A stretch of DNA of 64,000 nt from a virus (IMGVR_UViG_2588253904_000003:1-64000), one strand, 5' to 3'. Shown: positions 15,301-58,078, counted from the stretch's first letter. The notes: generated from the letters alone by a model not told the origin. Translations and numbers: made by a program.

Positions 15301-16501
15301 TACATTGCTCTGCTAAGCGACCTAAACAATAATTCCAGTTTTTCAGAAGGATTATCTTATGCCACATCAGGTATTGCCCAAGACATTGACAACCTGGAAG
15401 CTTCTGCTGCCACCGTCAGCGAAAGCACAGGCAAAATAGCCGCCAACATCGGGGAAGTTAACACCAGCGCAGAAACCCTAAGCGGCAGTCTGTCCAATAT
15501 TGGCGACGCCCTCTCCGGCTTTTCTGAGACGGACAATATCACTGCCGCCGCAGACGCCTTTTCTAAATTGGGGCAGGCAATCCAATCTGTAGCAGATGCA
15601 CTGAACATAAGCGAAGACGGTACCATAGGCAGTCTCACAGGCGCACTTAAGTCTTTATGCGAAATACCCCTTTGCCAAACGGATGATGATAAAAATGGCG
15701 GTATTCTGTCTAAATTTCAGGCATTAAAGACTGCTGTCACTGACGTAACAAGCGCCATTTCCGGCGGTGGTTCCTCCGCCTCAGACAGTGGTGACGGGGG
15801 AAATTCCTCAAGTCCAGGTACAAGCTCCGGTGCAGCCGGAAACAGTTCTGGCGGACTGGCAGGCGCCATTGCCTCCCTGAAATCCGCCGCCACTGATGCA
15901 TTAGGCGGCAATGGAAATGATGAATCAGAAGGACAAAGCGAAGGCTCCGGCATTATCGCCCAGTTTGGCCAGCTTAAAAATGCAGTAACCGATACCACGG
16001 AAGCCATCGGCAGCGGCGACTCAAAACAGAAGAAAAAATCTAAAGGAAACTCAAAAAATGGAAATCTGATCAGTTCCATCACAAGTCTTGGAAGCACCAC
16101 CTCAGAAATTCTTACCGGCGACGGTAATGATGAAGATAAATCAGGCGGCGTAATTGGGCGGTTTGAACAGTTTAAGGATGTCATCGGTGAAGCCAATGAA
16201 CATGTAACAGGAATTGCCACAGGGTTACACGATATTGATGGCGAAACTGTAGAATGCACCATCAAAGTAAATGTTGAACAAAATGGAGAGCTGCCTGCCT
16301 ATTCCAAAGGCGTCCTGGCTCCCATGAAGTTGGAAAGCGGTGAATATAAGGCAAAATATGGACGTGCATTTGCAAAGGGATCCGGAAATTACAAAGGACT
16401 TCCCAAATCAGAGAAAAATGCGCTTCGCTCTGAATATGGCCAGCCAGAATTAACCGTATATCCTGACGGAACTACAGAACTCACCACACAACCTACCATC
16501 A
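12394..16501 (+). CDS. Tape-measure protein, exon 2, 5' portion interrupted by the prophage
   Basis: Long coiled-coil ORF ending in AFAKGS...SEYGQPELTVYPDG...PTI; the ORF track reads on into phage DNA to 16653. Confidence 0.8.
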
Positions 16502-16515
16502 CCCCTCAGAATGAA
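16490..16515. other. Left attachment site
   Basis: CCTACCA-TCA-CCCCTCAGAATG: TMP sequence to the left, phage arm to the right. Confidence 0.75.
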
Positions 16516-16559
16516 AAAGAGAAAACAGAGGAGAGCCGGGCAGGCCCTCCTCTTTCCCT

Positions 16560-16808
16560 TTACATTGACAGCCGGATCTTTTTGGCCGCCGCCTGCTCAA
16601 TGAGCTGCTTTGCCTCTTCCCTGCTGCCACGCTCAGCAGATACCATGATATAACCGGGCATATCTTTGGCCGGTTCCACCTTAAAATCCTTCATTTCTGC
16701 CGCTTCCAGGCGCTCCTTCAGCTTTTTTGCATAATCTCCACATGCTGCCGGAAACGTGCCCGCAATCACCCGGATCGGGGCCTCCTTCGTGCTTTTTGTT
16801 TCTGCCAT
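16560..16808 (-). CDS. Small hypothetical protein
   Basis: 82 aa ORF with GGAGG RBS after the endolysin. Confidence 0.6.
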   Translation of the reverse strand: MAETKSTKEAPIRVIAGTFPAACGDYAKKLKERLEAAEMKDFKVEPAKDMPGYIMVSAERGSREEAKQLIEQAAAKKIRLSM

Positions 16809-16821
16809 TGTGTTTCCCTCC

Positions 16822-18462
16822 TTATGATTTCTTTAAATATTCACTACTGGAAAAGCCCTCTTTGCCATTGTAGGCAATATAAAGCCATTTCACACCTTCC
16901 ACCATGGTATAGTAACCATAATTCCGCACCGTTGCCCCTTTGGGGATCTCCGTGATAATATTCTCACTCTTCAGCACTCCCGGATGGGTTCTCATGTTCA
17001 AGTTGGTTGTGGTCTTATAGGCTCCGGCAATTCCCTTGGCAAAACTCTTTGCCCCCACCGGCTTCAGGGAAGCATTGCCCGCCGTGGCTCCGTTGGCCAC
17101 ATAGGTATAATATTGGCCGCCTGCATTGCTTGTGTAGGCATACCCACATGAAGCGCCCGGCCATACAATTTTATACCAACCATTGGCCAGGATCTCCAAT
17201 ACCTCCACAGAGGCTCCTTTGGTCACTCCTCCAATGGATCCGGATGCGGTACTGCTGCCGGTTCTCACATTCATATTGCTTTTGGCCGTTGCGCTGCCTA
17301 TTCCCTTGCCTACATAGTTTTTATTGCCTGAGGCCGTTGCTGTGCTCTGAGAAGCTCCTGAGGCCGTTCCTGAGGCCTTTGAGCCCTTACTCAATGCCAT
17401 AACTACATGAGAGCTTTCCTTCAGGTAAATGCCGCCCCTCTTTGCGTATGCACTGGATCCAGTGTGGGCAGCATCCGTGTATGCTTTAAATTTTCCGGTT
17501 GCCAGGAGAATGCTTTTCATATTGCCGGTGTAGCCACTGGCGGCAATGCTCAGGCCCGCCAATATGTAACATGCAAGCACCAGGGAGCTGCAATCAAAAT
17601 CTCCCTTGGCTCCGGCCACCTTCCGGCCATTGTTCACAATCGCATTAAAGCCCTTCCATCTGTTAGGCTGAGAATAGCCAAAATTATCATTTTTGCATAT
17701 CTCCTCCATAATTGCGGCGGCCTTGTCTGCCAGGGTATCATCCAGGCATTCCAGGTAAACATTCCACGGCTTACTGTACCATTCCCGGATGCAGATCTCT
17801 TTTGTGGTCTGATCCCCCGGTGTTTTCCCCTGAATTGTTCCGTTTTCGTCAATACTTGCATGGCCAATCAATACAGCCATCTGATCACTCCTTTCCTCAT
17901 AGCCCTTTACTGCTGCATATACCGCATCCCTCCGGGCCATATACTTACAGAAAACTTTGTCACTTTTCGCTGAAGCATAAAGCGCATCCAACGTCTTTCC
18001 ACCGGCCGCCCTGATAATCCGGGCAGAGGCTCCGGCCCCGCCCTGGTTCTCAATATCGGCCATGAAAATAATAGCTGCCGGATCTGTTACTCCCAAATTT
18101 TTAATATGGGTACAGTATCCGGTAATATCTTTCAGGGCAAGCGCATCCTGGGCCCGCTTCCCTTCCGTTGTGCTGAGGGCAGCAGATAACCGGCCCGCCT
18201 CTTCCGTTGTGGCCTTCCTGCTGCCCCATGAGGTGCCCTTTGCTGTAATTTCCGTATAAAGGGCCGCCCCCAATATTTCCTTGCCCTTTTGGGCTCCCAG
18301 GGCCTCACAAATCTCTTTCATAAGGCCCAGGGCCCTGCCGCCATGCCACTGGACTCTCCCAACCGATAAAGCCCCGTTATCGTTCTTATTTACCGATCCA
18401 TAACCCCCTTCATGGGAAAAAATGATCGGAGCCGCCCTCTCAGCAATTTCCTTCAGATTCAT
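16822..18462 (-). CDS. Endolysin: lysozyme-like domain, NlpC/P60-like peptidase and two SH3b domains
   Basis: HEGGYGSVN...ALSVGRVQW; FDCSSLV...HVVM; MNVRTG and LNMRTHPG SH3b starts. Confidence 0.85.
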   Translation of the reverse strand: MNLKEIAERAAPIIFSHEGGYGSVNKNDNGALSVGRVQWHGGRALGLMKEICEALGAQKGKEILGAALYTEITAKGTSWGSRKATTEEAGRLSAALSTTEGKRAQDALALKDITGYCTHIKNLGVTDPAAIIFMADIENQGGAGASARIIRAAGGKTLDALYASAKSDKVFCKYMARRDAVYAAVKGYEERSDQMAVLIGHASIDENGTIQGKTPGDQTTKEICIREWYSKPWNVYLECLDDTLADKAAAIMEEICKNDNFGYSQPNRWKGFNAIVNNGRKVAGAKGDFDCSSLVLACYILAGLSIAASGYTGNMKSILLATGKFKAYTDAAHTGSSAYAKRGGIYLKESSHVVMALSKGSKASGTASGASQSTATASGNKNYVGKGIGSATAKSNMNVRTGSSTASGSIGGVTKGASVEVLEILANGWYKIVWPGASCGYAYTSNAGGQYYTYVANGATAGNASLKPVGAKSFAKGIAGAYKTTTNLNMRTHPGVLKSENIITEIPKGATVRNYGYYTMVEGVKWLYIAYNGKEGFSSSEYLKKS

Positions 18463-18751
18463 CCTCTTCCTCCTTTCCCGTTTTGCACAAATCCGGGTAT
18501 TTCTCCGCTATCTTCCCATATACCCACACCCCGATCAGCACCAGGGGGAGAAACGGCCACAGCACCGCCGCCAATAAGGAAATAGCGAAAAAGGAGCAGA
18601 TGGCGATCAAGCCTTCTCCTGCTCCTTCCGGGTATTCCATGTATTTCTCTTCCTCACTCAACTCATTCCATGAGCTGCAAAACAGATATAATAAGGCCAT
18701 GGCCAATATTACAGCCACAGCCACATAAACAATAAGCAGCGCCTTCCACAC
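18440..18751 (-). CDS. Membrane protein of the lysis module
   Basis: Two to three hydrophobic segments. Confidence 0.55.
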   Translation of the reverse strand: MWKALLIVYVAVAVILAMALLYLFCSSWNELSEEEKYMEYPEGAGEGLIAICSFFAISLLAAVLWPFLPLVLIGVWVYGKIAEKYPDLCKTGKEEEDESEGNC

Positions 18752-18753
18752 TT

Positions 18754-19071
18754 TTATGCCCCCTTACTGTTATTCATAGCAAACACAGCCGCCTCTATCA
18801 GGGTTTCAAGCTGAGCATCCGAAATAGAAATATTTTTGGCTGCAAGAATCTCTTTCAAAAACTCCGTAACAATGGCCTTTTTCTCAGCGCCGGATCCTGC
18901 CTCCTTATTCATCTGCTCTGCCGCCTCCACGGCCTTGGCCACCCACTTCATAACTCCGGTGAGCTTCATTTCCTCTGCCCACGTTTTGAGCAGCGGGATC
19001 CCGTACCTCATAATGAGCGTTACTGCAATAATCACCACAAGCTCAATAACCTTTAATAAAATATTATCCAT
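18754..19071 (-). CDS. Holin (LL-H-like)
   Basis: N-terminal TM, AVEAAEQ...GAEKK...LIEAAV. Confidence 0.8.
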   Translation of the reverse strand: MDNILLKVIELVVIIAVTLIMRYGIPLLKTWAEEMKLTGVMKWVAKAVEAAEQMNKEAGSGAEKKAIVTEFLKEILAAKNISISDAQLETLIEAAVFAMNNSKGA

Positions 19072-19085
19072 AGAAATATGCCTCC

Positions 19086-19508
19086 TTATCCTTTTGCCGC
19101 CTCAGAGGGCCCTTCCTGGCTCTCTGAGCATGTTTCAGGGCCTCTCATTGCCATATCATGCACAATGCCGCCCTCCGTGTTTTCTTTGGTTGCTTTTGCC
19201 GCATAGGCACAGTATGAGATCGCTTCTCCTACCGTGGCCCCGATCAGGCTGTACAGCGCTGAGAGATCCGCAAAGTGCCACATTGCGGCCATAGAGTAAA
19301 GCTGCACCGCCGTACATGATAGGAAGATATAAGCCAGGGCCACCTTGGAAGCGTTTGGCGGCTTCTTTTTCGGCCAGTATTCCTCCCGCTTCTGTTTCAG
19401 CTCTTCCTCCAATAGCTTCCGCTCTCCCTGGATCTCAATCCTCCTCAGCTTCCGCTCATGCTCCCTGAGCTCTTCCCTGCTTAGCCTCACCCGGCTCACC
19501 TCCCACAT
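19086..19508 (-). CDS. Membrane-associated hypothetical protein
   Basis: Two TM segments, KATKENTEGGI. Confidence 0.6.
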   Translation of the reverse strand: MWEVSRVRLSREELREHERKLRRIEIQGERKLLEEELKQKREEYWPKKKPPNASKVALAYIFLSCTAVQLYSMAAMWHFADLSALYSLIGATVGEAISYCAYAAKATKENTEGGIVHDMAMRGPETCSESQEGPSEAAKG

Positions 19509-19944
19509 AAAAATCCTTTTCTTCCTGGCACTTATGGTAAATCTTCAGAATATACTCATATTCTGCTTCATATACACCGTTGGGATCATTCGTCACCTTC
19601 AGCAGCTCCTCATATTTCTCATTCTGCTGTATGATATAATTAAATTCACCCTCAGAGTGCCTCTGCCCTCTTTGGCATTCGTTGTAAAAATTGAAAATCT
19701 CTGCTTTGATATTGTCGGCGGCATCTATCGCCCTTTGTATTGCAAGTTCTTCCTGCCTTTTGGCAATTTCCTCCTGCTCCTTCCTCAGTTCCTTCATTTC
19801 TTCCTTCACACTGGCCATCATTTTGTTGCCGATCCACCCAAAAAGGCTGCTCCATGGATTGATCTTGATCTTGGATACCTCTATGAAGGTGCCCAGGAAG
19901 AGAGCCCCGCCTGAAATAGCCGCCACTATTTCTCCTATGCTCAC
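19456..19944 (-). CDS. Holin-associated hypothetical protein
   Basis: IKINPWS motif and coiled coil in the lysis region. Confidence 0.6.
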   Translation of the reverse strand: MSIGEIVAAISGGALFLGTFIEVSKIKINPWSSLFGWIGNKMMASVKEEMKELRKEQEEIAKRQEELAIQRAIDAADNIKAEIFNFYNECQRGQRHSEGEFNYIIQQNEKYEELLKVTNDPNGVYEAEYEYILKIYHKCQEEKDFYVGGEPGEAKQGRAQGA

Positions 19945-20156
19945 TCCTGCTCCTCTCCTTCCTCTTCATTTTCCGGCCCCTGCACTTTGCAGAAAACGCA
20001 CCGGGAGCATGGCTCTTGGCTGTATGGCATGTAATAACTTTTACATTCCCCACAATTTCCATATTCTTTGCACTCCCGGCTGCACTCTTCCAGTGTCCTC
20101 CTGCAATATCCCAGGGCCCTATGAGAGCACCTGAAATTATTCCGCTTCGGCTTCAT
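19941..20156 (-). CDS. Cys-rich small protein
   Basis: 71 aa ORF coupled to both neighbours. Confidence 0.5.
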   Translation of the reverse strand: MKPKRNNFRCSHRALGYCRRTLEECSRECKEYGNCGECKSYYMPYSQEPCSRCVFCKVQGPENEEEGEEQE

Positions 20157-20349
20157 CCATTTCCTTCAGCATGGCATTGAGCTCATTTTTCCTGGCGGCC
20201 ATTCTGTCAGATTCAGCGATCTCCTCAGCGTATTCCTCCACCGTGGCCCGCCCCATTGCGATCTTGGTGCCTATGTAGTCCTTTTCTCTCATAAGCTGAT
20301 CCAATCCTCTGATCTCTGCCTCAATCTGTTCTCTTGTCATTGCTTCCAT
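20137..20349 (-). CDS. Small hypothetical protein downstream of the RT
   Basis: 70 aa ORF with AGGAG RBS. Confidence 0.6.
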   Translation of the reverse strand: MEAMTREQIEAEIRGLDQLMREKDYIGTKIAMGRATVEEYAEEIAESDRMAARKNELNAMLKEMDEAEAE

Positions 20350-20364
20350 GTTTTTTCTCCTTCC

Positions 20365-21579
20365 TTATACTGTTTTAGGGATATATGGGATGTACTCCCA
20401 ATTTTCTATAAATAGCCGGTTGAAAAGGGCATCCATATTCCTGATAGTGTGGTATGCGTCCTTTTTCCCGGCAAATCCCCGCCATGATTGATATGCCGCC
20501 CTGATCTGCTCATAGCTCATGTGGCCCTCAGCATTCAGCTTGGCAAATTTCTTCAGCTTCCTTCTTTCCCTTGTTACAGAATCCCGGCATATTCTTTTCA
20601 CTACCTTCCCGGTATCCGTGAGCAGGAAATGTGTTTTTAAGAATGTGAAGCCCCTGCTGAGCTTCACAATTTTGGTTTTCTTATCATTGAGCCGTATTCC
20701 CAATGATTCATATATTTTTCGCACCTCTTCCAGTATCTCCTTCAGGTATTCCTTATCAATGTGAATGATATATGAATCATCCATATACCTGGCATATGGC
20801 CGGATCCCTTTTTCGTCCTTCACATAATGATCCACTTTATCAGGATAAGAAACGGCACATATTTGGCAGACTTCACTCCCTAATCCCAGGCCCCTGGCAT
20901 ACTCTTCACCGTACTCCATGGCCGCCTCTTTAAATTGTGCCATTTCCTTCATTTTCTCCTCAGCAAAGGCATCAATAAATTGCTCTGCAAGGTGAATGAT
21001 CCTCTGATCCGTGAATTTGCTCCGGATCTGCTCCTTCATTTTGTCATGTGGGATACTTGCAAAATAATCTTTCAGATCTATTTGCAGGATATAGCCCTCA
21101 TTTCCATATTTTGCATAATGCTCCTGCAAATGAAGCGTGATCCGGTCAATGGCATGGCTGATTCCCATACCCTTCCTGGATGCTCCGTTGTCATATATCA
21201 GACTATTGGAGAGTACCGGCATGAGTGCATTTTGTGAGAGGCTCTTCTGAGGCACACGCTCAGAGAAATGCACACTCTGAATATGCCTCAGCTTTCCCCT
21301 CTCCACCAAATCAAAGGCAATGAATCCCTTTCGGACATCCTCACCATTGATCAGTGCATTATGAGTTTTACAAAGGTTTCTGCTCAGCTCGGATCTGTAC
21401 CGCTGCACACTGGCTTTTCACCCCACTCCCTTCCTGGCATCCTTGTATGCCTGGTAAAGTGAGTTATAATCTGCCACCCGTTCAAAATTATCATATTCGG
21501 ATAGCCTCTCCCTCCGGTGTGCCTCCCTGGCCTCTCTCCTTCGCTGAGCTCTGCCCGCTCTTCTTTCTTCACTTGTCAT
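20365..21579 (-). pseudogene. DGR reverse transcriptase with in-frame TGA at codon 54
   Basis: DLKDYFASI, GLGLGSEVCQ, RYMDD, GFTFLK. The frame from ATG 21579 (MTSEERR...) reads ARKGVG*KASVQRY with TGA at 21420-21418; the tracked ORF 20365-21408 is the downstream part. Confidence 0.85.
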
Positions 21580-21868
21580 ATAAAATTGTGCCCATCTCCT
21601 CCTTGTACGGTATTTGTGCCCCTAACCGCATAATGGTATGGGTATGAAATGCACCTCTGCACCTTCTTTTCAGCTCCCTTCCGATTTCTGCACCATGCAA
21701 GCAGCGTACACCCACCCAAAACAAGCAAAAACCACCTCTCTGAGCACATGAGAGGCGGCAAGGTCATTTACACTTTTTTCAAAGTGACGGTCATCCACTC
21801 CTTCCTCTACCTGATACAGATTTCTGCCTTTTACAGCGTACTTTGTCGGATCGTTTATGGTAGTGAAT

Positions 21869-21988
21869 CAGACGGGCACCCGGAGAGCGTTGGAGCAACT
21901 GTTGTTGTTGGCATTGCCATTGTTGTTGACATTGCAGGCATTGGTAGAATTGCCCGCACACACAGACAGCAGCCACCAGTTGGCCCGG
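21869..21988 (-). ncRNA. DGR template repeat (TR)
   Basis: 120 bp with 12 AAY codons; differs from both VRs only at coding-strand adenines. Confidence 0.95.
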
Positions 21989-22020
21989 TGCGAAAAATAC
22001 AGCGGATAACCGATATTTCA

Positions 22021-22428
22021 TTATTTTCTTTTAACTATTTTCGTGTTGTCCTTCCAATTCTTCATCTTTCCCTCTTCCTTCAGCATTAAATTCAGGAGCG
22101 GATCAAATCGGTTCCAATCCACCGGCAAAGTAGTGGCCAGGTAATTTATGAGATCATAAATATCCCGCAAGGTGTCAATGGCCTCCTGGGCCTTTGCCTT
22201 CCTCTTCTCCACTAATTCCTCCGTGGTGCTCCATATTCTGTTAGCTGCCCGGATCTGAGTATAGAGCTTGTGGCACAGCGCACACATTGGCTTTGCAAAT
22301 ATATCCCGCCACCCTTTAGGCACTATATTGGTATTCCATACCAACCTTGTGGCCTCTGCTCTTATTTCCTCCGCAAGATCCAACACATCCAATTTCGAGG
22401 CGCTCCTGAGCCTTGCCAATACACTCAT
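22021..22428 (-). CDS. avd: DGR accessory variability determinant (Avd-like four-helix protein)
   Basis: 135 aa basic helical protein (IRAANRIW) between the target and TR/RT. Confidence 0.8.
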   Translation of the reverse strand: MSVLARLRSASKLDVLDLAEEIRAEATRLVWNTNIVPKGWRDIFAKPMCALCHKLYTQIRAANRIWSTTEELVEKRKAKAQEAIDTLRDIYDLINYLATTLPVDWNRFDPLLNLMLKEEGKMKNWKDNTKIVKRK

Positions 22429-22455
22429 GCTCTTTCCTCACTTTCGCAAATATAC

Positions 22456-22478
22456 CCCGCCCCTGGGAAGGGGGCGGG
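22456..22478 (-). promoter_or_regulatory. GC-rich hairpin downstream of VR1 (DGR target-recognition element)
   Basis: CCCGCCCC-CTTCCCA-GGGGCGGG just after the target stop codon. Confidence 0.75.
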
Positions 22479-22490
22479 ATTGATCCATGA

Positions 22491-23450
22491 TTATTCCGTG
22501 ATTCGGAAGCAGACGGGCACCCGGAGAGCGTAGGAGCAACTGTAGCTGTCGGCAATGCCATTGCCGCTGACATAGCAGGCATAGGTAGAATAGCCCGCAC
22601 ACACAGACAGCAGCCACCAGTAGGCCCGGCTTCCTCCGTCACCGGCCCCCTTGATCCGATTCTTCCAACTGTTCGCAAAAATCGGATACTGCACCGCCTG
22701 GCCTTCTCCCCATGGCTTTGTTGCCCAAATCAGTGAGCCAAACACTTCATATTCACACGGGATCCACAGTTTCCCTAAATCCTGCCACCCCCATGAGGTT
22801 GAATCATTCAGCTTTCCGGATGCGGAATATCTCTGCTCTAAAAGGAACCGCTTGGAGCTGATAACTGCCCGCACCTCTGCCGGGAGCTTTGCCTCTAATC
22901 CGGCCAGGAAGCTCTTCACGGTTGACTTGTTATAGGGATAAGGATCCGCTGAGGTTCCGTTGTTATCGTTTGAAGTGAACCATTGCACAGTATCCGGGTA
23001 ACAATCTTTTGAGATCCAATCAATATGCCACCCTACCTCCTGATCACAGCACCGTGTATATGTATTTATACCGGCAATCTGCATTTTGATCAGATAATTC
23101 CCCATGTAAATGGGTATATAGTCCTCTACATGCAGGCCATCAATGTTATGGGCTGCAAGCCTGGTTTTAATCCACCGCCACGGATCAGAAAATCCGGCAA
23201 TCTCCTCAGCAAATTCCACTGTAAGATCCCGTCCCTCATAGGTGCGATCTGCTGCCTCTATGGCATAATTGGTATGCTTATTCTCAAAATTGATCTGCTC
23301 TGCACCGTATTCATCCCCTTCCTGGGTGTACGGTGTTACGTCATTATAGCTCTTGGTGCCATCCTCGTTCTGCACCTCTCCAAACTTGCGATCTGCCGCA
23401 AGCTCTTTGTTGATCACGTCATCCACATAATCTGTTTTTAATACTGACAT
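22491..23450 (-). CDS. DGR target 1: tail-associated receptor-binding-type protein with C-terminal variable domain (DUF6273/CLec-like)
   Basis: Last gene of the tail module; VR1 at its 3' end. Confidence 0.85.
   Translation of the reverse strand: MSVLKTDYVDDVINKELAADRKFGEVQNEDGTKSYNDVTPYTQEGDEYGAEQINFENKHTNYAIEAADRTYEGRDLTVEFAEEIAGFSDPWRWIKTRLAAHNIDGLHVEDYIPIYMGNYLIKMQIAGINTYTRCCDQEVGWHIDWISKDCYPDTVQWFTSNDNNGTSADPYPYNKSTVKSFLAGLEAKLPAEVRAVISSKRFLLEQRYSASGKLNDSTSWGWQDLGKLWIPCEYEVFGSLIWATKPWGEGQAVQYPIFANSWKNRIKGAGDGGSRAYWWLLSVCAGYSTYACYVSGNGIADSYSCSYALRVPVCFRITE
22510..22629 (-). repeat. DGR variable repeat VR1
   Basis: 12 mismatches to TR over 120 bp, all at TR adenines. Confidence 0.95.
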
Positions 23451-33846: not shown

Positions 33847-34698
33847 TTAGTTCTTATTTGCTGTCAATACAGAGATACACTTGGGCTGCAATACCTTGGC
33901 ACCATACACATGCAGGCCTTTAACAGCGTCAGAGAATCTCTTTTCAGGCCGGTATGCTTCAGTTTTGAGAATCTGCTCAGCATAGGAGCCTGCTGCATTG
34001 GTTCCGGCAATGATCTTGTACTTCTCCCCATCCGTATTCGGCACATTGTTGGAGAGCCAAATTCTGAAGCCTGCTGCCACACCGATCTCACCGCCTTCAA
34101 TGAGGGCTTTATTGTAATCTGTACCATTTCCCACAAATCTGCTATCTTTCAGCAAAAGGCCGTGATACCATGCCGGAATAACCGCCCATCTCCCAATCGT
34201 GGGCACGTTCTTTTCCGTCAAATCCGTGGAAAGATCCACCAGGTAATCATAGGCATTATCTTTGGCCGGTACAATCGGCGCTGCATCCGTTCCCAGGTTC
34301 GTGCCATTGTTCTCAGCTCCCAAATACAAAAGGTTTGCCAGGAAAAGATCCGTTGTATCGTTCATGGCATACGCTGAGCGCTGCATGGCCGAATCCATGA
34401 GTTTAGGGTTCACCTGAGCGGCATCCACATCATCAATGGAAAAGTTGAAATATTTCGCCTGATCAATGGTGAGTGTGTTCTGATCGCCGTTCAGTTCCTC
34501 CGGATCGTCAATATCCTTCCCTTTTGTGTAGTCCTTAATGGTGACATCCCCGATCTGATTGATTTTTACGGTATCACCATAGTTTTTGATCTCCCCTTCA
34601 TAATCCCGGTTTACCAGGGCGGCATACACATGTGCCTTGTCAAGGTGTGCCAAAAGCCTGGCGCTCCAAATTGTGGGGATAAAATTTGCTACTGACAT
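33847..34698 (-). CDS. Major capsid protein
   Basis: FIPTIWS...NRDYEGEI..GDTVKI...D.VKGLHVYGAKV. Confidence 0.9.
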   Translation of the reverse strand: MSVANFIPTIWSARLLAHLDKAHVYAALVNRDYEGEIKNYGDTVKINQIGDVTIKDYTKGKDIDDPEELNGDQNTLTIDQAKYFNFSIDDVDAAQVNPKLMDSAMQRSAYAMNDTTDLFLANLLYLGAENNGTNLGTDAAPIVPAKDNAYDYLVDLSTDLTEKNVPTIGRWAVIPAWYHGLLLKDSRFVGNGTDYNKALIEGGEIGVAAGFRIWLSNNVPNTDGEKYKIIAGTNAAGSYAEQILKTEAYRPEKRFSDAVKGLHVYGAKVLQPKCISVLTANKN

Positions 34699-34722
34699 TT
34701 TTTCTTTCCTCCTTTATTCGCT

Positions 34723-35499: not shown

Positions 35500-35650
35500 A
35501 TTGTTCTTTTCCTCCTATATGCCCCTGCATTTCCTTTCCAGGCCCCACAGATTCATTATTTTGGTTTCGCCTGCCTCTTATTTTCGGCCCTTGGCAGCAC
35601 CGGGCCCGCCTCTCACCCTCGGCATGGGAGATAAAAGGATCACCGCCTTT

Positions 35651-35905: not shown

Positions 35906-35984
35906 GCTCAGATCCTCCTCTCTTATTTTTGTATACAAAAAGAGCCATGCATCTCTGCACAGCCCTTCATTGCTTAAAATATTA

Positions 35985-37202: not shown

Positions 37203-37207
37203 TCAGA

Positions 37208-38698: not shown

Positions 38699-38726
38699 TT
38701 CAATCCCTCCTAACAAAAAGAGAGCC

Positions 38727-39335: not shown

Positions 39336-39589
39336 TTTGCTTTCCTCTGCTCTGCAATTTTCATAATTTCGGCCATTACTTCAGATTGATTGGTTAAATA
39401 ATTTAGGAACATGAATGATCTCATGCAATGCATATAATCATCCTGATCTGCCCTTCCTAATGCTATTTTATTCAAACTATCAGCCATCTTGTTTAACATG
39501 AGGCTCATTGTGTATATGGCTTCATTTTCCGATTTCTTATTTGCTTCCGTGTTATTCCCTTTCGGTCTAAATTCAATTACTTTACTCAT
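39332..39589 (-). CDS. Hypothetical protein
   Basis: 85 aa with AAGGAG RBS. Confidence 0.6.
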   Translation of the reverse strand: MSKVIEFRPKGNNTEANKKSENEAIYTMSLMLNKMADSLNKIALGRADQDDYMHCMRSFMFLNYLTNQSEVMAEIMKIAEQRKAK

Positions 39590-39612
39590 AGTTATCTCCT
39601 TTCAAATTATGC

Positions 39613-39714
39613 TTGAAAGAAGTTCCATTCTGCTCTATAATGTGTACAGAAGGAAACTTCTGATATGGAGCAATCGTGATACCGTCCAAAGTGAAACGAT
39701 TGCTCTTATTTTTT
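39613..39714 (+). ncRNA. Predicted short antisense RNA with its promoter and terminator
   Basis: TTGAAA-N17-TATAAT (39613-39641), then GAGCAATCGT...ACGATTGCTC-TTATTTTT. Confidence 0.55.
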
Positions 39715-39889
39715 ACCTATCTTTTACCTCTTCATAGACCTTCTCAATTCCCTTTCTAACAATATCTGATTTTGATAAACCAGTTTTTTCACAGCAAAAT
39801 TCTAAAAGTTCAACTTCCCTATCAGAAAGCCTTATTCTATATTGATTGTTTTTGGGGTCTTTTGTTGGCCTGCCTGTTCTTGGTGACAC
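39713..39889 (-). CDS. 58 aa ribbon-helix-helix (CopG-like) regulator not in the ORF track
   Basis: GTG start after GGAGG: MSPRTGRPTKDPKNNQYRIRLSDRE...SKSDIVRKGI. Confidence 0.75.
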   Translation of the reverse strand: MSPRTGRPTKDPKNNQYRIRLSDREVELLEFCCEKTGLSKSDIVRKGIEKVYEEVKDR

Positions 39890-39904
39890 TTTTTTCCTCC
39901 TTTC

Positions 39905-39949
39905 TTTTGGCTACACATAAATTATATATTTTGCGTAGCCAAAAGTCAA
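39905..39949 (-). promoter_or_regulatory. sigmaA promoter overlapped by an inverted-repeat operator
   Basis: TTGACT-N17-TATAAT on the minus strand; TTTTGGCTAC...GTAGCCAAAA inverted repeat. Confidence 0.65.
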
Positions 39950-41217
39950 TAGTGAATCCCTAATTTCTTTTTTTCTCTTATTTTCGCTTTTTTGTTCATT
40001 ATTTCGTCAGATATTGCATACCTGGTACAGTCAAGAAAATGGTTGTCTTTATCAGGGTATGATCCTTTGAAATTTCCGTTTTTATCCTTTTCCAGTTCAT
40101 ATGAGGAAAATTCACGGGCTGCATTCGGGCACCTCACCGGATCAATAACAATATAATCCAAATCATTGGCCAGGTAATTGATCCCAAAATCAACGGATCC
40201 GGGCCCCTTTTTTGCCGGGTACACCCTCAGGCCTAACTCATTGAAGGAGGATATGGAGCGGGGTTCCTCGCTGTCTGCTATGATGATCTTGTTATCAGGA
40301 TTTAGCTTCTTAATCTCCTCCACAGCCTTCCGGGTTTTTAGGTTCACCTGGTAGATCTCAGCAAAGATGTAAAGCCGCCTCTGCTTCTTATTCAGGTGCA
40401 TTCTTCCAAATGCAAGCGGATCCGCCGCAAAACCAAAATCCAGGCCTTGCTTAATCTTATCAAAGATCGCTATCTCTTCATCCGTGATCTCCCTCAGAAT
40501 CACATTATCAAATACTTTTCCACCGGTTCCAGTAGCCTCTCCCAGGTACTCATGCCGGTATGCCATTCTTTTCCGCTTTTTGAGCTCTTCAGCCTCAATG
40601 AAAAATTGCTCTCCCAACCAACTCCTGGGCACTGTCAAATAGGTGGAATGGCTGCACAGCGTATCCTCCCGCACCTGAAGCACATCCTGATTTACCCATG
40701 AATTGAGGCTCTTTGGCGGGTTCCATGTGTAAAATACCACATACTTATCACCGCCACGCATTAAGGACTGGTTTATTTTTCTTTCATCTTCATCCCCTTC
40801 AAACTCAGCCCTTTCCTCATACCATATGTATTTAAAATAGCCCTTCCTCAGTTTGATTGACTTGGACTTGTTAGGATCATCACAGCCCCTAAATACAATC
40901 CTTTGCCCTGTTGGCTTATAGGTTAGCCTCAGGGGGGAGAGGGTTATTTTCCATAAGTGGCTTACTTCCAGGGCATCTATGGCCCACAAAAGCTGCTCAA
41001 AAACGCTCTCAGCCAGGGTATTGCCCACCTTCCTGAAACAAGCGGCATTCGCATTGGGATCCTGCATCATGCCGTAAATTATTTCCAGGCTCACAAATGA
41101 GGATTTAGTGGAGCCTCTGCCTCCGTATAGCTTATAGTGGGTATGTTTACCCTCCAAAATATCCCAATGAATATCATAGAATTGTGGTGCAATGAGATCA
41201 GATAGTCTAATCTCCAT
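39946..41217 (-). CDS. terL: Terminase large subunit (PBSX type)
   Basis: GGRGSTKS Walker A, WYEE, GLDFG, DNHFLDCTRY. Confidence 0.95.
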   Translation of the reverse strand: MEIRLSDLIAPQFYDIHWDILEGKHTHYKLYGGRGSTKSSFVSLEIIYGMMQDPNANAACFRKVGNTLAESVFEQLLWAIDALEVSHLWKITLSPLRLTYKPTGQRIVFRGCDDPNKSKSIKLRKGYFKYIWYEERAEFEGDEDERKINQSLMRGGDKYVVFYTWNPPKSLNSWVNQDVLQVREDTLCSHSTYLTVPRSWLGEQFFIEAEELKKRKRMAYRHEYLGEATGTGGKVFDNVILREITDEEIAIFDKIKQGLDFGFAADPLAFGRMHLNKKQRRLYIFAEIYQVNLKTRKAVEEIKKLNPDNKIIIADSEEPRSISSFNELGLRVYPAKKGPGSVDFGINYLANDLDYIVIDPVRCPNAAREFSSYELEKDKNGNFKGSYPDKDNHFLDCTRYAISDEIMNKKAKIREKKKLGIHY

Positions 41218-46674: not shown

Positions 46675-47298
46675 TTATTTTTTGATACTGAAGCAGACGG
46701 GCACCCGGAGAGCGTAGGAGCAACTGCTGCCGTTGGCAATGCCATCGTAGTTGACATTGCAGGCATGGGTAGAATGGCCCGCACACACAGACAGCAGCCA
46801 CCAGTCGGCCCTCTCTCCATCCTTGTCAAATTTCACCCGGTTCCTGGAATCCTTGAAGAGCTCAAACTGCTGCCCCTCCTCCACTTCAGAGGCCCAACTA
46901 TCGCCAAATACTTCAAATTCAGACGGGAGCCACAGCTTCAGCATGAAGCGCTCCTCTTTCCCTTCCACAATCTGAAGGCACTCCCTCTCACTGATCACCG
47001 CCTTCAGCTCCTCAGGCAGGATCTCCCACACTCCCTCATTCAGATACCGGCATAAATCCGATTCTTTAAAGCCTCCGGTGTTTCTCCCGTTCCCATTCCA
47101 CACCACACGCTCAGCCAGGAGATCCTTGCTTACAAATTTCACCTCTTCCTCTGTAATATCTGCCACCACATACACCATTTTCTGCCCGGTGAGCAGATTA
47201 TCAGAGATTTCATCCCCTACTTTCAAAGAGCCTGCTGCTGCCAGTTCCTTCACCTTGGCCCAATTTGTTTCCTCTGTTCTTTTCCTTGTGATTTCCAT
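46675..47298 (-). CDS. DGR target 2 (remote): stand-alone DUF6273/CLec-like protein in the early region
   Basis: AAGGAGG RBS before ATG 47298; KLWLPSEFEVFG resembles target 1 KLWIPCEYEVFG; VR2 at the 3' end. Confidence 0.88.
   Translation of the reverse strand: MEITRKRTEETNWAKVKELAAAGSLKVGDEISDNLLTGQKMVYVVADITEEEVKFVSKDLLAERVVWNGNGRNTGGFKESDLCRYLNEGVWEILPEELKAVISERECLQIVEGKEERFMLKLWLPSEFEVFGDSWASEVEEGQQFELFKDSRNRVKFDKDGERADWWLLSVCAGHSTHACNVNYDGIANGSSCSYALRVPVCFSIKK
46694..46811 (-). repeat. DGR variable repeat VR2
   Basis: 10 mismatches to TR over 118 bp, all at TR adenines. Confidence 0.95.
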
Positions 47299-47329
47299 AT
47301 GTTTCTTATCCTCCTTATATTTTCTCAGG

Positions 47330-47644
47330 CTATTGGCCGCCTGCTGCCTTCTGTAATTCTTCCAGGGTTTTCTCTGCTTCCTTATCCTCTGCCCCTGCTG
47401 CCACAAGCGCAATATGGATCGCCCTCAGCTTTGCCTCTCCAATCCCTTTTATTTTCCGTATTTCTTCCAGTGCCGTGGGGAGATTGAAGGAAGAAGCCGC
47501 CTGCTGCCGCCCGGCCTCATATCCTGCTGTATATCCCCGCTCATAATATCCGGCAATATGGCTCTCCATGGTGCTGTGATCCATTTTCCGGATCCGGTCA
47601 AATTCTTTCCGGTTTACCTCAACCGCCTTTTTCTTCTTGGCCAT
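47330..47644 (-). CDS. Hypothetical protein with HhH-like motif
   Basis: KIKGIGEAK. Confidence 0.55.
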   Translation of the reverse strand: MAKKKKAVEVNRKEFDRIRKMDHSTMESHIAGYYERGYTAGYEAGRQQAASSFNLPTALEEIRKIKGIGEAKLRAIHIALVAAGAEDKEAEKTLEELQKAAGGQ

Positions 47645-51001: not shown

Positions 51002-51456
51002 CTCTCCAACTCCTTCCTGAGTTCTGATTGCATTACATTCTCATATTCGTGGTGATCGTCTTTCAGGGTGTAGGTGTGGCCCTTCCCCTTTTCAATCAGC
51101 ATTTTCCACAGCTCAGCATTCTTCACCGGCTTCCCCTTTGCATTGATCCACCCGCTCTCCTGCCATTCCTTTGGCCACTCCTGCTGCATGGAGATCAAAA
51201 TGTGGCTGCACTTGGTAAATACTAGGGCTCTGCATGGTTTTTTCAGAATGTAAAAGGCATTGATCATAGCCATAAGGTTCCCCTGGGTTTCTGTACCCTC
51301 TTTCACATGCACAAATCCCTGCCGGGTATCCAGGCGATCTCCTCTTTTGCATTCCACCAACCACATGGCCACCCCATCCCTCCTGGCCGGGCCTCTCCAT
51401 GTGCTCTCAATGAATATGCTCACCTCATGCATCCCCTGAATCACCTCCTGGATCAA
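50980..51456 (-). CDS. RNase H-like protein
   Basis: W..SGWINAKGKPVKNAELW (RNase HI basic protrusion). Confidence 0.7.
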   Translation of the reverse strand: MIQEVIQGMHEVSIFIESTWRGPARRDGVAMWLVECKRGDRLDTRQGFVHVKEGTETQGNLMAMINAFYILKKPCRALVFTKCSHILISMQQEWPKEWQESGWINAKGKPVKNAELWKMLIEKGKGHTYTLKDDHHEYENVMQSELRKELESWKNTEK

Positions 51457-52207
51457 TCTTTCGCATGGTGTAGTGCTGATATGGGAGCCCCGTCACCGGG
51501 TTTTCACCATTCACAAGAGAATCCTTCACAATGTACCAACCTTTTTCCGGCTTTGGCTCCTTCCTCCACCTCCTGCTGTGAATCACTTCCTTTTGCGGCT
51601 GAGGTATGATCAGATTCCTACTCCTGGAATATGAGCAGCCCTCCTCCTCTTCCTTGCTTTCTTTTTTCACTATGTACTCAGCAAGATCCTCAAACTCCCC
51701 ATCCTCATACAGCGGGTGGAAACTCTTGGATCCATATTGCCAAAACTTCAGCACCAGTTTTTTGGTGTTCAAATTCTGATCCGCTATATCCTCAATGATC
51801 AGGTGGTGGTGACATGCTCCTTGCTTCCCTCTCTCCGTGACAGCTATCCACTTGAAGGGGATCCCCGCCTTCTTGTATACCTTCCTCATATCAGACAAGA
51901 ATTTTCTCAGTTGCTTCTTTGCCTCCTTAAAGGAGCCCGGCCTCTGCTCTTTCTTATAGCTCAGAATTAAATGCCAATCACCCTCATGGAAATTGGCCAG
52001 GATCAACCTCTGCACCTTTTTCTCTCTGTTCGTCTTATTCTGCCGATCTATGTCCTCAGGTGTCCTCTTTCTTTTTGGCCCCCTCTTCACTCCTGGGGCC
52101 CCATAATTACCCGGATAGTATTTTGCAATCTGCTTCACCCATCCCAGGTCATATATTTTTTTCCAGTACAAACCGTATATCACCCCCATCTTTAATATCT
52201 TGATCAA
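51425..52207 (-). CDS. HUH rolling-circle Rep-like initiator
   Basis: HLILSY (motif I), E.G...HHHLII (HUH), LAEYIVKE-like motif III, SRNL. Confidence 0.7.
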   Translation of the reverse strand: MIKILKMGVIYGLYWKKIYDLGWVKQIAKYYPGNYGAPGVKRGPKRKRTPEDIDRQNKTNREKKVQRLILANFHEGDWHLILSYKKEQRPGSFKEAKKQLRKFLSDMRKVYKKAGIPFKWIAVTERGKQGACHHHLIIEDIADQNLNTKKLVLKFWQYGSKSFHPLYEDGEFEDLAEYIVKKESKEEEEGCSYSRSRNLIIPQPQKEVIHSRRWRKEPKPEKGWYIVKDSLVNGENPVTGLPYQHYTMRKIDPGGDSGDA

Positions 52208-52681: not shown

Positions 52682-52693
52682 GCCTTTTCCCTC

Positions 52694-54686: not shown

Positions 54687-54777
54687 GGCTTATCCCTCCA
54701 TAATTATTTCATTGTGTTTATAGAATACCACAATGTGTTTAAAAGATCAATAGCTTTTCCTTGAAAATTATTGCAAT

Positions 54778-55287
54778 GTGTTATTTTTCGTGTTATATTA
54801 TCCTCAGGAGGTGATTTTTTTGGATATTGGGGATAGAATTAAGCTCCTCAGAAAAAGGCTAAATATGAATCAGGCTGACTTTGCAACCCCTCTCGGCCTC
54901 AGACAGTCCACCATCGGAAATTATGAGAGCGGATCTAGGGGGATAAGTGATGCAACCATATTGGCCATATGCAGAGAATATGGCGCTAGTGAGGAATGGC
55001 TTCGCACCGGCTCCGGTGAAATGTTTGCCACTGTTCCGGCCACCGTAGTTTCTGAATTGGCCAGGGAGCACGATCTTGACGATATGGATCAGGCCATTAT
55101 TGCTGAGTATTTGAAATTAGATAAGGGGAGCCGGGCTGTATTGAAAGATTACATAAAAAGAGTGTACCTTGCTTCAGATCCGGATGCTGCCATTGATAGA
55201 GAAGTGGCTGCATACCGCAAAGAATTGGAAGCTGAAAAAGGGGAAAAATCATCAGCCTTAGACACTATAAGAGAAAAAGAGGCTTAG
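54778..55287 (+). CDS. XRE-family (CI-like) repressor
   Basis: RIKLLRK.LNMNQADFA..LG...STI..YESG...WLRTGSGEMF. Confidence 0.88.
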   Translation: MLFFVLYYPQEVIFLDIGDRIKLLRKRLNMNQADFATPLGLRQSTIGNYESGSRGISDATILAICREYGASEEWLRTGSGEMFATVPATVVSELAREHDLDDMDQAIIAEYLKLDKGSRAVLKDYIKRVYLASDPDAAIDREVAAYRKELEAEKGEKSSALDTIREKEA

Positions 55288-55305
55288 AATAGGGGGGATT
55301 GCTTA

Positions 55306-55884
55306 TTGAACGATAAAGCATATTTTATTATTACCCTTCTTTTCGGATGGTGTGGCGCTCACAAATTTATCCAAAAGAAGTACGGTATGGGCCTTCTGTA
55401 TCTTGTTACTTTCGGATTGTTCGGACTTGGATGGGCCGCTGACTGCTTCCGGGCCCTGCTGCCGGTGCTCCGTCATAAAAATGGTGCTCCTGCTGCCAGT
55501 GCTCAGCATGATAACATTGTGGATCAGCTCTGCCTCTCCCTGGATCCTGAATTTGTTTCCTTCGTTCTGCCCATGATTAAGGCAGGGCTTTCATGGAATA
55601 GAATTGAGCAGGCTTACCGCTCTTCTTTTCCTGATTCAGAATGTGAGGATCTTGCCCTCAGAATCCAGTATGTTGAAAGTTATTACTCAAATTCTACTGA
55701 GATCGCAAGCCTGAAGGAATGCGGGGCCTCAAAGTATCGGATCATTTCAATGCCCGATCATGAATTATGTGATATTTGTAAGAGATTCAAAGGCCGTACT
55801 TTTCCGGTATCCTCTGCAAGGATCGGCTACAACTGCCCGCCCTTCCACCTTGGATGCCGGTGTACCACCGTTATAGAAGAATAA
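55306..55884 (+). CDS. TM2-domain membrane protein fused to a MuF-like Cys/His domain
   Basis: FGWCGAHKF...GLLYL.TFGLFG.GW (TM2) plus C..C...CPPFHLGCRCT. Confidence 0.7.
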   Translation: MNDKAYFIITLLFGWCGAHKFIQKKYGMGLLYLVTFGLFGLGWAADCFRALLPVLRHKNGAPAASAQHDNIVDQLCLSLDPEFVSFVLPMIKAGLSWNRIEQAYRSSFPDSECEDLALRIQYVESYYSNSTEIASLKECGASKYRIISMPDHELCDICKRFKGRTFPVSSARIGYNCPPFHLGCRCTTVIEE

Positions 55885-55973: not shown

Positions 55974-56017
55974 TCAGATTCCGGGCATTTTTATGCCCTT
56001 TTTTAGGAGATAATAGC

Positions 56018-57598
56018 ATGAATTTTGGAATATATTGCAGAAAATCATATTTTGTTGATACTTCAGAGAGCACACAGATGCAGCTCTCCATGTGTAAAAA
56101 TCATATAGAGCAGCGCTTTCCTGAGGTTGATTCCCTCGCATTCTATGAAGATGATGGTTATGTGCGCTCAGATATGGATCGGCCCGGCATGAACCAACTG
56201 AAGGAAGATATTGCAGCAGGCCTCATTGATTGTGTGGTTATTTACAAAATAGATCGGGTGTGCTCCGATATGATGGACTTTTGCACCTTCTACTCTTACC
56301 TGAAGGAGCATGAGATCAAATTTATCACTGTTCAGGATGGCATTGATACCACCACACCCCTGGGAGAGGCCATGATGTACTTGGCTGTAATCTTTTCCGG
56401 CCTGGAAGTTCGCACAGATTCCCTCAGGATCACCGATAATATGAACCACCTGGCGGCAAGTGGCTTTTGGTGTGGGGGCCGGGCTCCCGTTGGCTATGAT
56501 ATTGCCACTATTGACCTGGGGGCAAAATCCCACAAAACGCTCACATTCAATCAGGAAGAGATCGACTATAAAAACAATCTTATTGACATATTCTTAGAGA
56601 ACGGCTTCAGCCTTCAGAGCATGGAAACATATTGCAAAAACAACCGGATCACCTCTTTAAAAGGCAGCTTCCTCTCTACAACTCAGTTATACAACCTTTT
56701 CACCTCTCCTCATTGTGTTCAGGATACTCCGGCCATGTATGACTATTTTGAAGCTAAAGGCTGCATGATTGATGAAAATTCCCCCCGTGAGAAGTGGGAT
56801 GGCCAACATGGGATCATTGTATATGGCCGCACCATGGAAAAGCGGGTGAACGGCAAAAAGCGCCACTCCCTGGCACCGCCTGAGAAGTGGCGGGTGAGTA
56901 TCGGCTTTCATAAGCCATATATGACGGATCAGCGCTTCTTTTCCATTATGGCCCAATTCGGGCATAATACTTTTTCAAAGGTTGCAAAGTATGATCTGCC
57001 GCTCCTGAAGGGTGTGCTCCGGTGCAAGTGTGGCCGCACCATGAGCATGAGCCGCAAGCAAAAAGTGGATGGCTCTGTTTCCACCTGGTACTATTGCCCC
57101 AAACGCATGAGGGCCGGTGCTGAGGCTTGCGACATGCGGCAAATTAAGGCCGATCTACTGGATGGGAAGGTGTTGGACGTGTTCAAAGAAATACAGCACA
57201 ACCCGGCCACCGTCAAAAAATACCTGAAGGACGGGAAAAAGCCTGCAAGGGATTCCTCTGCCTCTGTCCGGGCCCAAATGGAAACATGCCAGGAAAAGAT
57301 CGGGAAGCTCACCGCCGCCCTGGCCGTGAATAATGAATCTGCTGCTGCAAAGTATATTATAGGGGAGATTGAAAAACTTGATATAGAATATAATACCCTC
57401 AAAAGCAAGCTGCTGAATTTTGCCGCTGAGGAAAGACGGGCCGCCGCCCAAATGAAGAGCGCTATGGAGAAAAGAGAGGCCATCATTCGGCTTTTGGATA
57501 ATTTTGATAGTTTCACAGCAAATGAGAGGAATGAGATCGCCAAAAATGTGCTGAAGGAATGCACCTGGGATGGGGAAACGCTTTTTATTGTGCTTTAG
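56018..57598 (+). CDS. Large serine recombinase (integrase)
   Basis: YCRKS catalytic Ser, DRPG, KIDR, G.W.GG.AP.GY, LKG.LRC.CG Zn ribbon, coiled coil. Confidence 0.95.
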   Translation: MNFGIYCRKSYFVDTSESTQMQLSMCKNHIEQRFPEVDSLAFYEDDGYVRSDMDRPGMNQLKEDIAAGLIDCVVIYKIDRVCSDMMDFCTFYSYLKEHEIKFITVQDGIDTTTPLGEAMMYLAVIFSGLEVRTDSLRITDNMNHLAASGFWCGGRAPVGYDIATIDLGAKSHKTLTFNQEEIDYKNNLIDIFLENGFSLQSMETYCKNNRITSLKGSFLSTTQLYNLFTSPHCVQDTPAMYDYFEAKGCMIDENSPREKWDGQHGIIVYGRTMEKRVNGKKRHSLAPPEKWRVSIGFHKPYMTDQRFFSIMAQFGHNTFSKVAKYDLPLLKGVLRCKCGRTMSMSRKQKVDGSVSTWYYCPKRMRAGAEACDMRQIKADLLDGKVLDVFKEIQHNPATVKKYLKDGKKPARDSSASVRAQMETCQEKIGKLTAALAVNNESAAAKYIIGEIEKLDIEYNTLKSKLLNFAAEERRAAAQMKSAMEKREAIIRLLDNFDSFTANERNEIAKNVLKECTWDGETLFIVL

Positions 57599-57607
57599 TT
57601 TTCCCTG

Positions 57608-57636
57608 AATTATTTTGATACCCTCAGCGATCTTCC
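57608..57636. other. Right attachment site
   Basis: ATTTTGATACCC-TCA-GCGATC; the rebuilt attP has arms TTATTTTGA / TCAGAATGA (imperfect inverted repeat). Confidence 0.75.
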
Positions 57637-58078
57637 GAAAGGAACCGTTATTTTTAATGAAGCACAGACAAAAGAAATCTTCCAAAATAAAGCGGATACT
57701 ATGGGCAGCGTTTCTGCAAGCGGCTCTACAGGACAAAGCATTCCCGGAAAACCCACTCTTCCTCCGCCTCAGCGCCCTGCCTTTTTGGTGCAGCAGGAAT
57801 TGCAGGAAGAATGCCTTGCAAAAACAGGCAACATTACGGATAAAATTTTATCTCCCCTAAATATGCTTTCCCGCAATTGGAAAGACATGGCCGGCCTGAC
57901 AGGAAACATAAATCATATCAATCACAATGGACAAAACCAGTCTGTCAATGTAGGCGGCATCAATATCACCTGTCCCGGCGTTACCAGTCAGGAAGTGGCC
58001 AGACAGTTAGGGACAGAATTAAATCATATTTTCAGCGGATTCCATAACTATGCAGACCAGCAAAGCAGAGTCAGATAA
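57627..58078 (+). CDS. Tape-measure protein C-terminal portion, separated by the prophage
   Basis: Reads (S)DLPKGTVIFNEAQTKEI in frame with the 57701-58078 ORF; continues QPTI from 16500. Confidence 0.85.

Follow-up and report, generated by a model that had tools for sequence, protein, structure and literature searches.

A prophage splits the tape-measure-like gene of a tail-like element

The DNA analyzed here, referred to as the window, is the 64,000-nucleotide stretch IMGVR_UViG_2588253904_000003:1-64000, which forms part of a 1.47-Mb contig in the 4.57-Mb genome (G000) of a mouse-gut bacterium. Two elements are nested in it. The outer one carries tail and lysis genes, and its tape-measure-like gene is interrupted by an inner prophage that occupies positions 16502-57623 and is present as a single copy in the genome. 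A TCA trinucleotide is found at each junction, with 41,122 bases between its two copies, and this trinucleotide is the only sequence that the junctions have in common; there are no long direct repeats at the ends of the element. An initial annotation of the window had proposed that recombination at this TCA would rejoin the two parts of the gene in frame, and both positions that it gave for the trinucleotide were verified in the sequence (Table 1).

Natural sequences that lack the insert reveal the structure of the vacant site. The metagenome locus L011 is 98.8% identical to window positions 7593-16501 and 98.5% identical to 57619-64000, does not contain 16502-57623, and diverges from the window after 16501. 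The two flank alignments share 8 bp, in which there is a single mismatch, and the sequence spanning the site reads CCTACCATCAGTGATCTTCC. Residues 1000-1382 of the 5' part, used as a protein query, returned 456 matches at E<=0.001 among 7997 candidates, 120 of which were listed. All nine of the anchor-containing proteins among the first 20 listed read ...ELTTQPTISDLPKGTVIFNE... across the site, and the intact alleles spell QPTISDLPKG through the insertion point.

Assembled contigs from four of the 24 listed sequencing runs (X1, X5, X12 and X17) were compared with the window. The X17 contig departs from the window at 16501, and its next 30 letters are identical to 57627-57656. The X5 contig is identical across 11180-16501 and then continues for 8438 further letters, while the X12 contig ends at the very base at which X5 and X17 depart. 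For the inner-phage half (16506-26500), these three runs held only short, divergent contigs at lower depth, from which no inference was drawn. The X1 contig, taken from a separate Logan assembly of what is possibly the source sample, crosses attL from 7684 to 22535 with zero differences, which argues against misassembly.

The empty-site alleles that the initial annotation had suggested searching for are represented by L011 and the X17 contig. Intact alleles found in nature have the sequence obtained by joining the two pieces at TCA, with the frame continuing to the stop at 58078 as predicted, and no empty allele with a different junction was found among L011, X17 and the nine anchored proteins. 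The crossover is conservative and lies within the shared TCA, which in the 1520-codon gene falls at codon 1370/1371. The inserted DNA is a prophage of the serine-integrase type, and recombination at the shared TCA would restore the tape-measure-like gene exactly. A 7-bp repeat, CCCTCAG (16503-16509 and 57621-57627), was considered as an alternative core and rejected; it would give an out-of-frame join and is contradicted by L011.

The restored gene is colinear with intact alleles

Joined at the TCA, the gene consists of 1370 codons, a composite serine codon and 149 further codons, which amounts to 1520 codons, or 1533 when counted from the ATG at 12352. This upstream ATG opens the longest open reading frame (ORF) of the 5' part, and the closest homologue, P0004, begins at ATG 12391. 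The long ORF from 12352 ends at 16653, and its sequence from 16502 onwards is unrelated to any homologue. P0004 is an intact protein of 1520 amino acids (aa) that is colinear with both parts: its residues 1-1371 are 99% identical to the product of 12391-16503 and its residues 1369-1520 are 95% identical to that of 57620-58075. The initial annotation had estimated a length of about 1635 codons with splicing, and had suggested that one gene would need both DNA excision and RNA splicing. A colinear, 99%-identical intact allele of 1520 aa means that no splicing is needed, and an Rfam scan of the window found no intron family, its only match being an RT-2 RNA; neither suggestion is supported. Other alleles range from 1515 to 1810 aa, a variation that comes from mosaic N-terminal parts and not from an intron.

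The assignment of this gene is based on homology and position. Homologues with 51% identity across residues 1000-1382 contain PF10145 and are named tape-measure proteins by their sources, and the 1520-aa gene occupies a tape-measure-like position between the tube-like gene and the downstream tail genes. Neither the window protein nor P0004 has a Pfam family above cut-off, and the sole PHROG match is weak and unnamed. The insertion point falls in a motif, P-x-x-x-DLP(K/R), that 97 of the 114 aligned homologues share; the exact QPTISDLP occurs in 16. The INPHARED phage collection contained no match to the 3' part of the gene or to the last 499 residues of the N-terminal part, and scans of IMG/VR returned nothing for the tape-measure protein or for the 23-mer at the right end of the element.

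The integrase and its attachment sites

The inner prophage encodes a large serine recombinase (LSR) next to attR. Its Pfam matches are Resolvase (1.2e-18), Zn_ribbon_recom (6.1e-10) and Recombinase (1.5e-4), and DUF4368 is absent from the matches at E<=0.001. The 90%-identity cluster of this integrase has 352 members, one of which is found on 281 contigs, and the 15 members listed are all 526 aa long. The attP site rebuilt from the element ends has inverted arms, as noted by the initial annotation. These arms are imperfect; when centered on TC they match at 16 of 30 positions, compared with 8-11 at shifts of 1-4 bases, and among control positions across the window 16 matches occur at only 0.12-0.15%. 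The crossover dinucleotide is most likely TC, because the last base pair common to all seven element ends described below, as well as the peak of attP symmetry, falls there.

To place these sites among those of related integrases, a scan of one genome per species was performed and yielded six loci with integrases at 99, 98, 93, 93, 93 and 77% identity. At all seven loci, including the window, the element end reads GATAC(C/T)CTC and is followed by differing DNA. Four of the relatives (L018, L020, L021 and L022) interrupt a T2SSE-family ATPase gene, each at profile position 215 of 370, whereas L017 interrupts the gene for an sCache_3_3 (Cache-domain) sensor and L019 a histidine kinase gene. The tape-measure gene is the target at the window locus only, and at none of the six relatives, contrary to the expectation that related integrases would use the same site. 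The proposal that the phage targets a conserved tape-measure motif is not supported: the site does lie in such a motif, but none of the six related insertions found is in a tape-measure gene, and the T2SSE site of the same genome is vacant.

The T2SSE ATPase gene of G000 is intact on contig C2, and its right half-site starts with the same 15 bases as that of L021. The tape-measure and T2SSE attB sites share 25 of 62 positions. Across the ten half-sites compared, T at +9 is found in all ten and G at +2 in eight, although five of the ten come from one gene family and are not independent. Searching 401 genomes of the family added only two further integrases, both distant (41-46% identity), and three distant loci from an IMG/VR integrase scan (56-61% identity) were excluded from the site counts.

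As set out by Durrant et al. 2022 (PMC10083194), a multi-targeting LSR is one in which a single 90%-identity cluster is found in more than three distinct target gene clusters. The window and the five loci at 93-99% identity place one 90% cluster in four target families (tape measure, T2SSE, sCache_3_3 sensor and histidine kinase), which is more than three, with the families assigned by Pfam or homology and unrelated by Pfam. From this distribution, the integrase would be one of a loosely targeted, multi-targeting group whose members insert into various genes on a weak site pattern, and its choice of site would reflect relaxed specificity. Since four of the seven loci share one target gene, the behavior looks like a preferred site with secondary sites and not like near-random insertion.

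Only the source sample or contig showed the interrupted allele

Part of a 121-base stretch across attL is held by 20 of the 24 run rows. All ten sampled words of this stretch occur in three of the 20, which represent one sample, possibly the source; the remaining 17 rows (17 samples from ten studies, mostly mouse gut) hold six of the ten words. In the 90% cluster of the tape-measure protein, 15 of the 45 members were listed, twelve of them 1520 aa and one 1533 aa in length. Eleven of the listed 1520-aa members are each found on 10-94 contigs, and intact alleles are present on hundreds of contigs. The truncated forms, of 1420 and 1433 aa, are the window's own, and their sole recorded contig is C1 of G000. 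A search for orphan C-terminal parts recovered the window's own 125-aa ORF on four contigs, and no close DNA copy of the left flank was found in the genomes of 61 relatives. The interrupted state was thus found only in the source sample or contig and is not the conserved state of the lineage, which speaks against the excision switch envisaged by the initial annotation.

One candidate for a second insertion at the same codon, P0150 (153 aa), starts three residues before SDLPKG. Its first residues back-translate to what we take to be the end of a common sequencing adapter, and it was set aside as a putative contig-edge artefact.

Gene content of the inner prophage

The inner prophage is 41.1 kb long, with most of its genes on the minus strand (Table 1). 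In addition to the genes listed it encodes two methylases, a single-stranded DNA-binding protein (SSB) and tail proteins, and together its genes make up the full set of a temperate phage of the siphovirus-like kind. The 30 inner ORFs scanned included no PHROG labelled excisionase or directionality factor; directionality factors are diverse, so this lack of a match says little. No terminator-like site was found on the plus strand in a scan between the integrase stop and the junction. The window contains no tRNA genes, which takes tRNA targeting out of consideration.

Variable repeat 1 (VR1) of the diversity-generating retroelement sits at the 3' end of a 319-aa ORF (22491-23450), and its differences from the template repeat (TR) fall at TR adenines in 13 of 13 cases. 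A second variable repeat, VR2 (46679-46811), is located in the early region approximately 24 kb from VR1, at the 3' end of a 245-aa ORF (46675-47412), and all 11 of its within-repeat differences are likewise at TR adenines. Between the repressor-like gene and the integrase there is a 192-aa ORF (55306-55884) whose last ~65 residues match a minor-head internal domain (phrog_2841, 1e-16).

Table 1. Coordinates of the features of the outer element, the inner prophage and their junctions in the window.
Feature	Position	Strand	Remarks
GmrSD_N-domain protein, 489 aa	342-1811	-	Left edge of outer element
YonO-like single-subunit RNA polymerase, 812 aa	3310-5748	+	Pfam RdRP 6.5e-16; tblastn match to SPbeta yonO, 93% of query
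Tube-like virion protein, 267 aa	7718-8521	+	phrog_2729; placed with YomU/Tube by a protein atlas (a lead, not a test)
Holin	8721-9215	+	PHROGs
Endolysin of outer element	9222-9920	+	PHROGs
Outer tape-measure-like gene, 5' part	12391-16501	+	Codons 1-1370 and first base of codon 1371
attL core TCA	16499-16501		Shared with attR; likely crossover dinucleotide TC at 16499-16500
Read-through tail, phage-derived	16502-16653	+	50 codons and stop added to truncated tape-measure protein
Strong terminator-like hairpin, 11 pairs	16527-16553	-	Closes phage late/lysis operon, 25 nt inside attL
Endolysin of inner prophage	16822-18462	-	Pfam ELLD 2.8e-62 and SH3_3
Diversity-generating retroelement	20365-22629	-	Reverse transcriptase (RT) 20365-21408, RT-2 RNA 21577-21855 (Rfam), TR 21865-21988, VR1 22506-22629
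Inner phage's own tape-measure gene, 1193 aa	26864-30445	-	phrog_1535, 5.8e-172
Major head protein	33847-34698	-	PHROGs
Scaffold	34723-35499	-	PHROGs
Minor head protein	35985-37202	-	PHROGs
Portal	37208-38770	-	PHROGs
Large terminase	39946-41217	-	PHROGs; head/packaging module is 33847-41217
Replication initiation protein	51425-52207	-	phrog_3584, 1.6e-51
Repressor-like helix-turn-helix regulator	54778-55287	+	Integrase strand; phrog_8 and phrog_4, transcriptional regulator/repressor
Large serine recombinase, 526 aa	56018-57598	+	Stop 25 nt before attR core
attR core TCA	57624-57626		Shared with attL
Outer tape-measure-like gene, 3' part	57627-58078	+	Last two bases of codon 1371, 149 codons, stop (58076-58078)
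Four downstream tail genes (405, 309, 608 and 212 aa)	58401-62977	+	Two with matches (60553-62379 and 62339-62977)

The outer element resembles the tail and lysis part of a phage

Without the insert, the outer element is approximately 23-25 kb long. It comprises 300-16501 and 57627-64000 of the window and extends to ~66050 (in locus L027). Both flanks are chromosomal, with FeoB, endonuclease III, a methyl-accepting chemotaxis protein (MCP) and a tRNA methyltransferase on the left and TatD and an ABC transporter on the right. A direct-repeat search for the ends of the element gave chance-level matches only. The GmrSD_N protein at the left edge possibly has a role in defence, and near the left end the minus strand also carries a sigma-like gene. 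Of the downstream tail genes, 60553-62379 matches a phrog_1887 tail protein and DUF5048, and 62339-62977 has a weak tail-collar-fibre match. A single-sequence AlphaFold model of the tube-like protein had a mean predicted local distance difference test score (pLDDT) of 39.8 and was not used for a fold search. None of the 20 outer ORFs, several of which are unannotated, matched terminase, portal or major capsid PHROGs.

Based on this gene content, the outer element looks like the tail and lysis section of an SPbeta-like phage, and we lean towards regarding it as a tail-only, tailocin-like element. It seems to be undescribed; the runs that contain its tape-measure side are mostly from mouse gut, and a literature search for YonO together with a tailocin found no report.

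Three further observations concern the outer element and its surroundings. Upstream of the tube-like gene, 7539-7716 contains short tandem-like repeats of ~72 bp, at which all contig sets break or vary and to which L011 aligns in two registers. Beyond the window, a 795-bp segment bounded by 21-bp inverted repeats (G000:C1 543217-544011, corresponding to ~64024-64818 in window numbering, from L027) is inverted in L011 relative to G000. It overlaps the 3' part of the 162-aa ORF that ends the outer tail genes and adjoins a tyrosine recombinase gene (~64896-65981), and it looks like a fibre-switching invertible segment. Finally, a stretch of ~9 kb between the outer element and TatD (~66050-75102 in L027), which is missing from L011, encodes a Rep-type protein with Rep_OBD and helicase domains and a second tyrosine integrase. 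This stretch is probably a small integrative element, in which case three mobile elements are stacked at one locus.

Discussion

The likely explanation for this arrangement is an opportunistic, in principle reversible, insertion of a multi-targeting serine-integrase phage into the tape-measure-like gene of a resident element. The insertion leaves a truncated protein with 1370 of its own residues followed by 50 encoded by the phage. It also puts the final 149 codons, together with every tail gene that follows them, 41 kb away from the 5' part of the gene and its promoter side; the initial annotation had already proposed a separation from the tip genes. With the gene split and the distal tail genes uncoupled, the outer element would be disabled in the window's strain. 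If attL and attR recombined, the gene would be restored precisely, and such excision would need a directionality factor. Because the integrase falls in a loosely targeted group, we infer that the phage landed here recently, opportunistically and in this strain specifically, and that the insertion is no dedicated or regulated switch. Conserved occupancy and a dedicated site are features of the known gene-restoring switches, and neither is found here.

Several observations weigh against this interpretation. The integrase cluster has 352 members, of which only seven contexts were seen, and conservation of the motif at the insertion point, seen in 97 of 114 homologues, is what one would expect of a dedicated target. 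The vacant T2SSE site of G000 could instead indicate a preference of this integrase variant for the tape-measure site. P0160 and P0161, found on contigs of 1179 and 5216 nt, are near-identical 125-aa C-terminal ORFs that begin at the same internal methionine as the window's ORF; each could represent another split allele or a call at a contig edge. In G467, which belongs to another species of the genus (locus L034), contig C16 encodes a 44%-identical homologue and ends four codons before DLPKG. The contig has normal gene sequence up to its end, and its termination at the conserved block is probably an assembly break. Contigs drop rare variants, and rare excision would therefore escape notice, so that a regulated switch retains a small probability. 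The tail-only nature of the outer element, lastly, derives from absent matches among 20 ORFs and from a single language-model lead.

The insertion could instead reflect conflict between the two elements, in which a phage or integrase variant prefers to land in a rival tail or tailocin element and thereby removes a competitor for the timing of lysis or a weapon against its next hosts. The tape-measure site was used although the T2SSE site of the same genome was free, and the insertion is maximally disruptive, because all distal tail genes are separated in a polar manner. There is only a single instance, however, and integrases that are 98-99% identical are located elsewhere. The low similarity between the tape-measure and T2SSE attB sites also fits relaxed specificity, and we regard a preference of this kind as unlikely.

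An evolved excision switch, or "active lysogeny", would make the prophage the off-switch of the tail element, with regulated excision, possibly without lysis or in a sacrificial subpopulation, that would rebuild the gene and start tail production. SPbeta in spsM, skin in sigK and the Listeria comK phage would be the parallels. The restoration is exact and in frame, the integrase is intact, and the insertion point lies in a conserved motif. The outer element also looks alive, as judged from 97-99%-identical copies with open genes and from a fibre segment that is inverted between two genomes. Against this, occupancy was seen in one sample only, related integrases occupy other genes, and no directionality factor was recognized among the 30 inner ORFs covered by the scan. 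Every serine-integrase insertion is restorable, so restorability on its own is no mark of a switch. Taken as a whole these points make an evolved switch a highly doubtful reading of the locus. That two unrelated elements were misjoined at a short repeat during assembly is extremely improbable: the junctions share only 3 bp and the source runs are small (9-10 million letters each), but the window lies inside a 1.47-Mb contig, an independent contig set spans attL without a difference, the two flanks align elsewhere to a single uninterrupted gene, and the junction has an integrase beside it and an attP-type end common to six other loci.

Comparison with known gene-interrupting elements helps to place the opportunistic insertion proposed here. 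The Listeria comK prophage is a serine recombinase element that interrupts a gene, which is restored on excision. The skin element in sigK of Bacillus subtilis and Clostridioides difficile is described in the same terms (PMC5025042), and the arrangement in the window is alike in this respect. The skin and comK elements are presented as fixed, in many cases degenerate, and linked to a programme of the host. The insert in the window differs in having the head, tail, lysis and diversity-generating retroelement genes of a full phage, and the relatives of its integrase are found at several other sites.

In the accounts of the SPbeta prophage in spsM of B. subtilis, excision involves the SprA integrase and the SprB directionality factor (PMC4191935, PMC5499854). 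As there, a serine-integrase prophage lies in a coding gene whose frame is recreated by precise excision, an activity that in the window is predicted from the sequence. The outer element also shares SPbeta-type parts, namely the YonO-like polymerase and the YomU-like tube lead. The spsM gene differs in being a chromosomal host gene, its interruption is reported as the normal arrangement of the lineage, and its excision is under developmental control through the directionality factor, whereas the target in the window is in a mobile-type element and its occupancy was seen once.

The integrase agrees with the multi-targeting LSRs as outlined in PMC10083194 in that one 90% cluster uses more than three unrelated targets, with a fixed core dinucleotide (TC here) and loose flanks. 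It departs from the clade described there in that DUF4368, which is common in that clade but not strictly defining, was not detected at the threshold given above. Prophages within prophages are reported from Escherichia coli, where the attB sites lie in effector-gene-associated loci that are apparently derived from the host chromosome (Nakamura et al. 2021, PMC8112680). The window resembles these cases in having attB inside another prophage-type element, but its site is inside an essential structural gene, so that the outer element would be broken. Literature searches turned up no account of a prophage that had inserted into a tape-measure or tailocin gene.

F-type tailocins, such as the Listeria monocins, are flexible and non-contractile. 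In its predicted gene content the outer element is like them, with tube-like, tape-measure, distal tail/fibre, holin and endolysin genes and, among 20 ORFs, no recognizable head or packaging gene. It is unlike them in its YonO-like RNA polymerase, its sigma-like gene, its invertible fibre segment and its tyrosine recombinase.

The locus provides a clean natural case in which a phage occupies an essential structural gene belonging to another phage-type element, with attB, attP, attL and attR defined to the base. The tape-measure and T2SSE ATPase sites form a natural pair for studying target choice by a loosely specific serine integrase, and the window's strain, a putative natural knockout beside near-identical intact strains, offers a convenient comparison. 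The locus also points to a common, seemingly undescribed and probably tail-only element of mouse-gut Lachnospiraceae. The interest of the case is modest unless regulated excision is shown. It seems unlikely that the prophage works as a reversible off-switch between two mobile elements, in which lysogeny would silence a widespread tail-only, tailocin-like element of mouse-gut Lachnospiraceae driven by a YonO-type polymerase, and induction would restore the tape-measure gene within the same cell and so co-release tails and phage. Should excision nevertheless prove to be regulated, "active lysogeny" would no longer be limited to host genes and would include cases in which one mobile element controls another.

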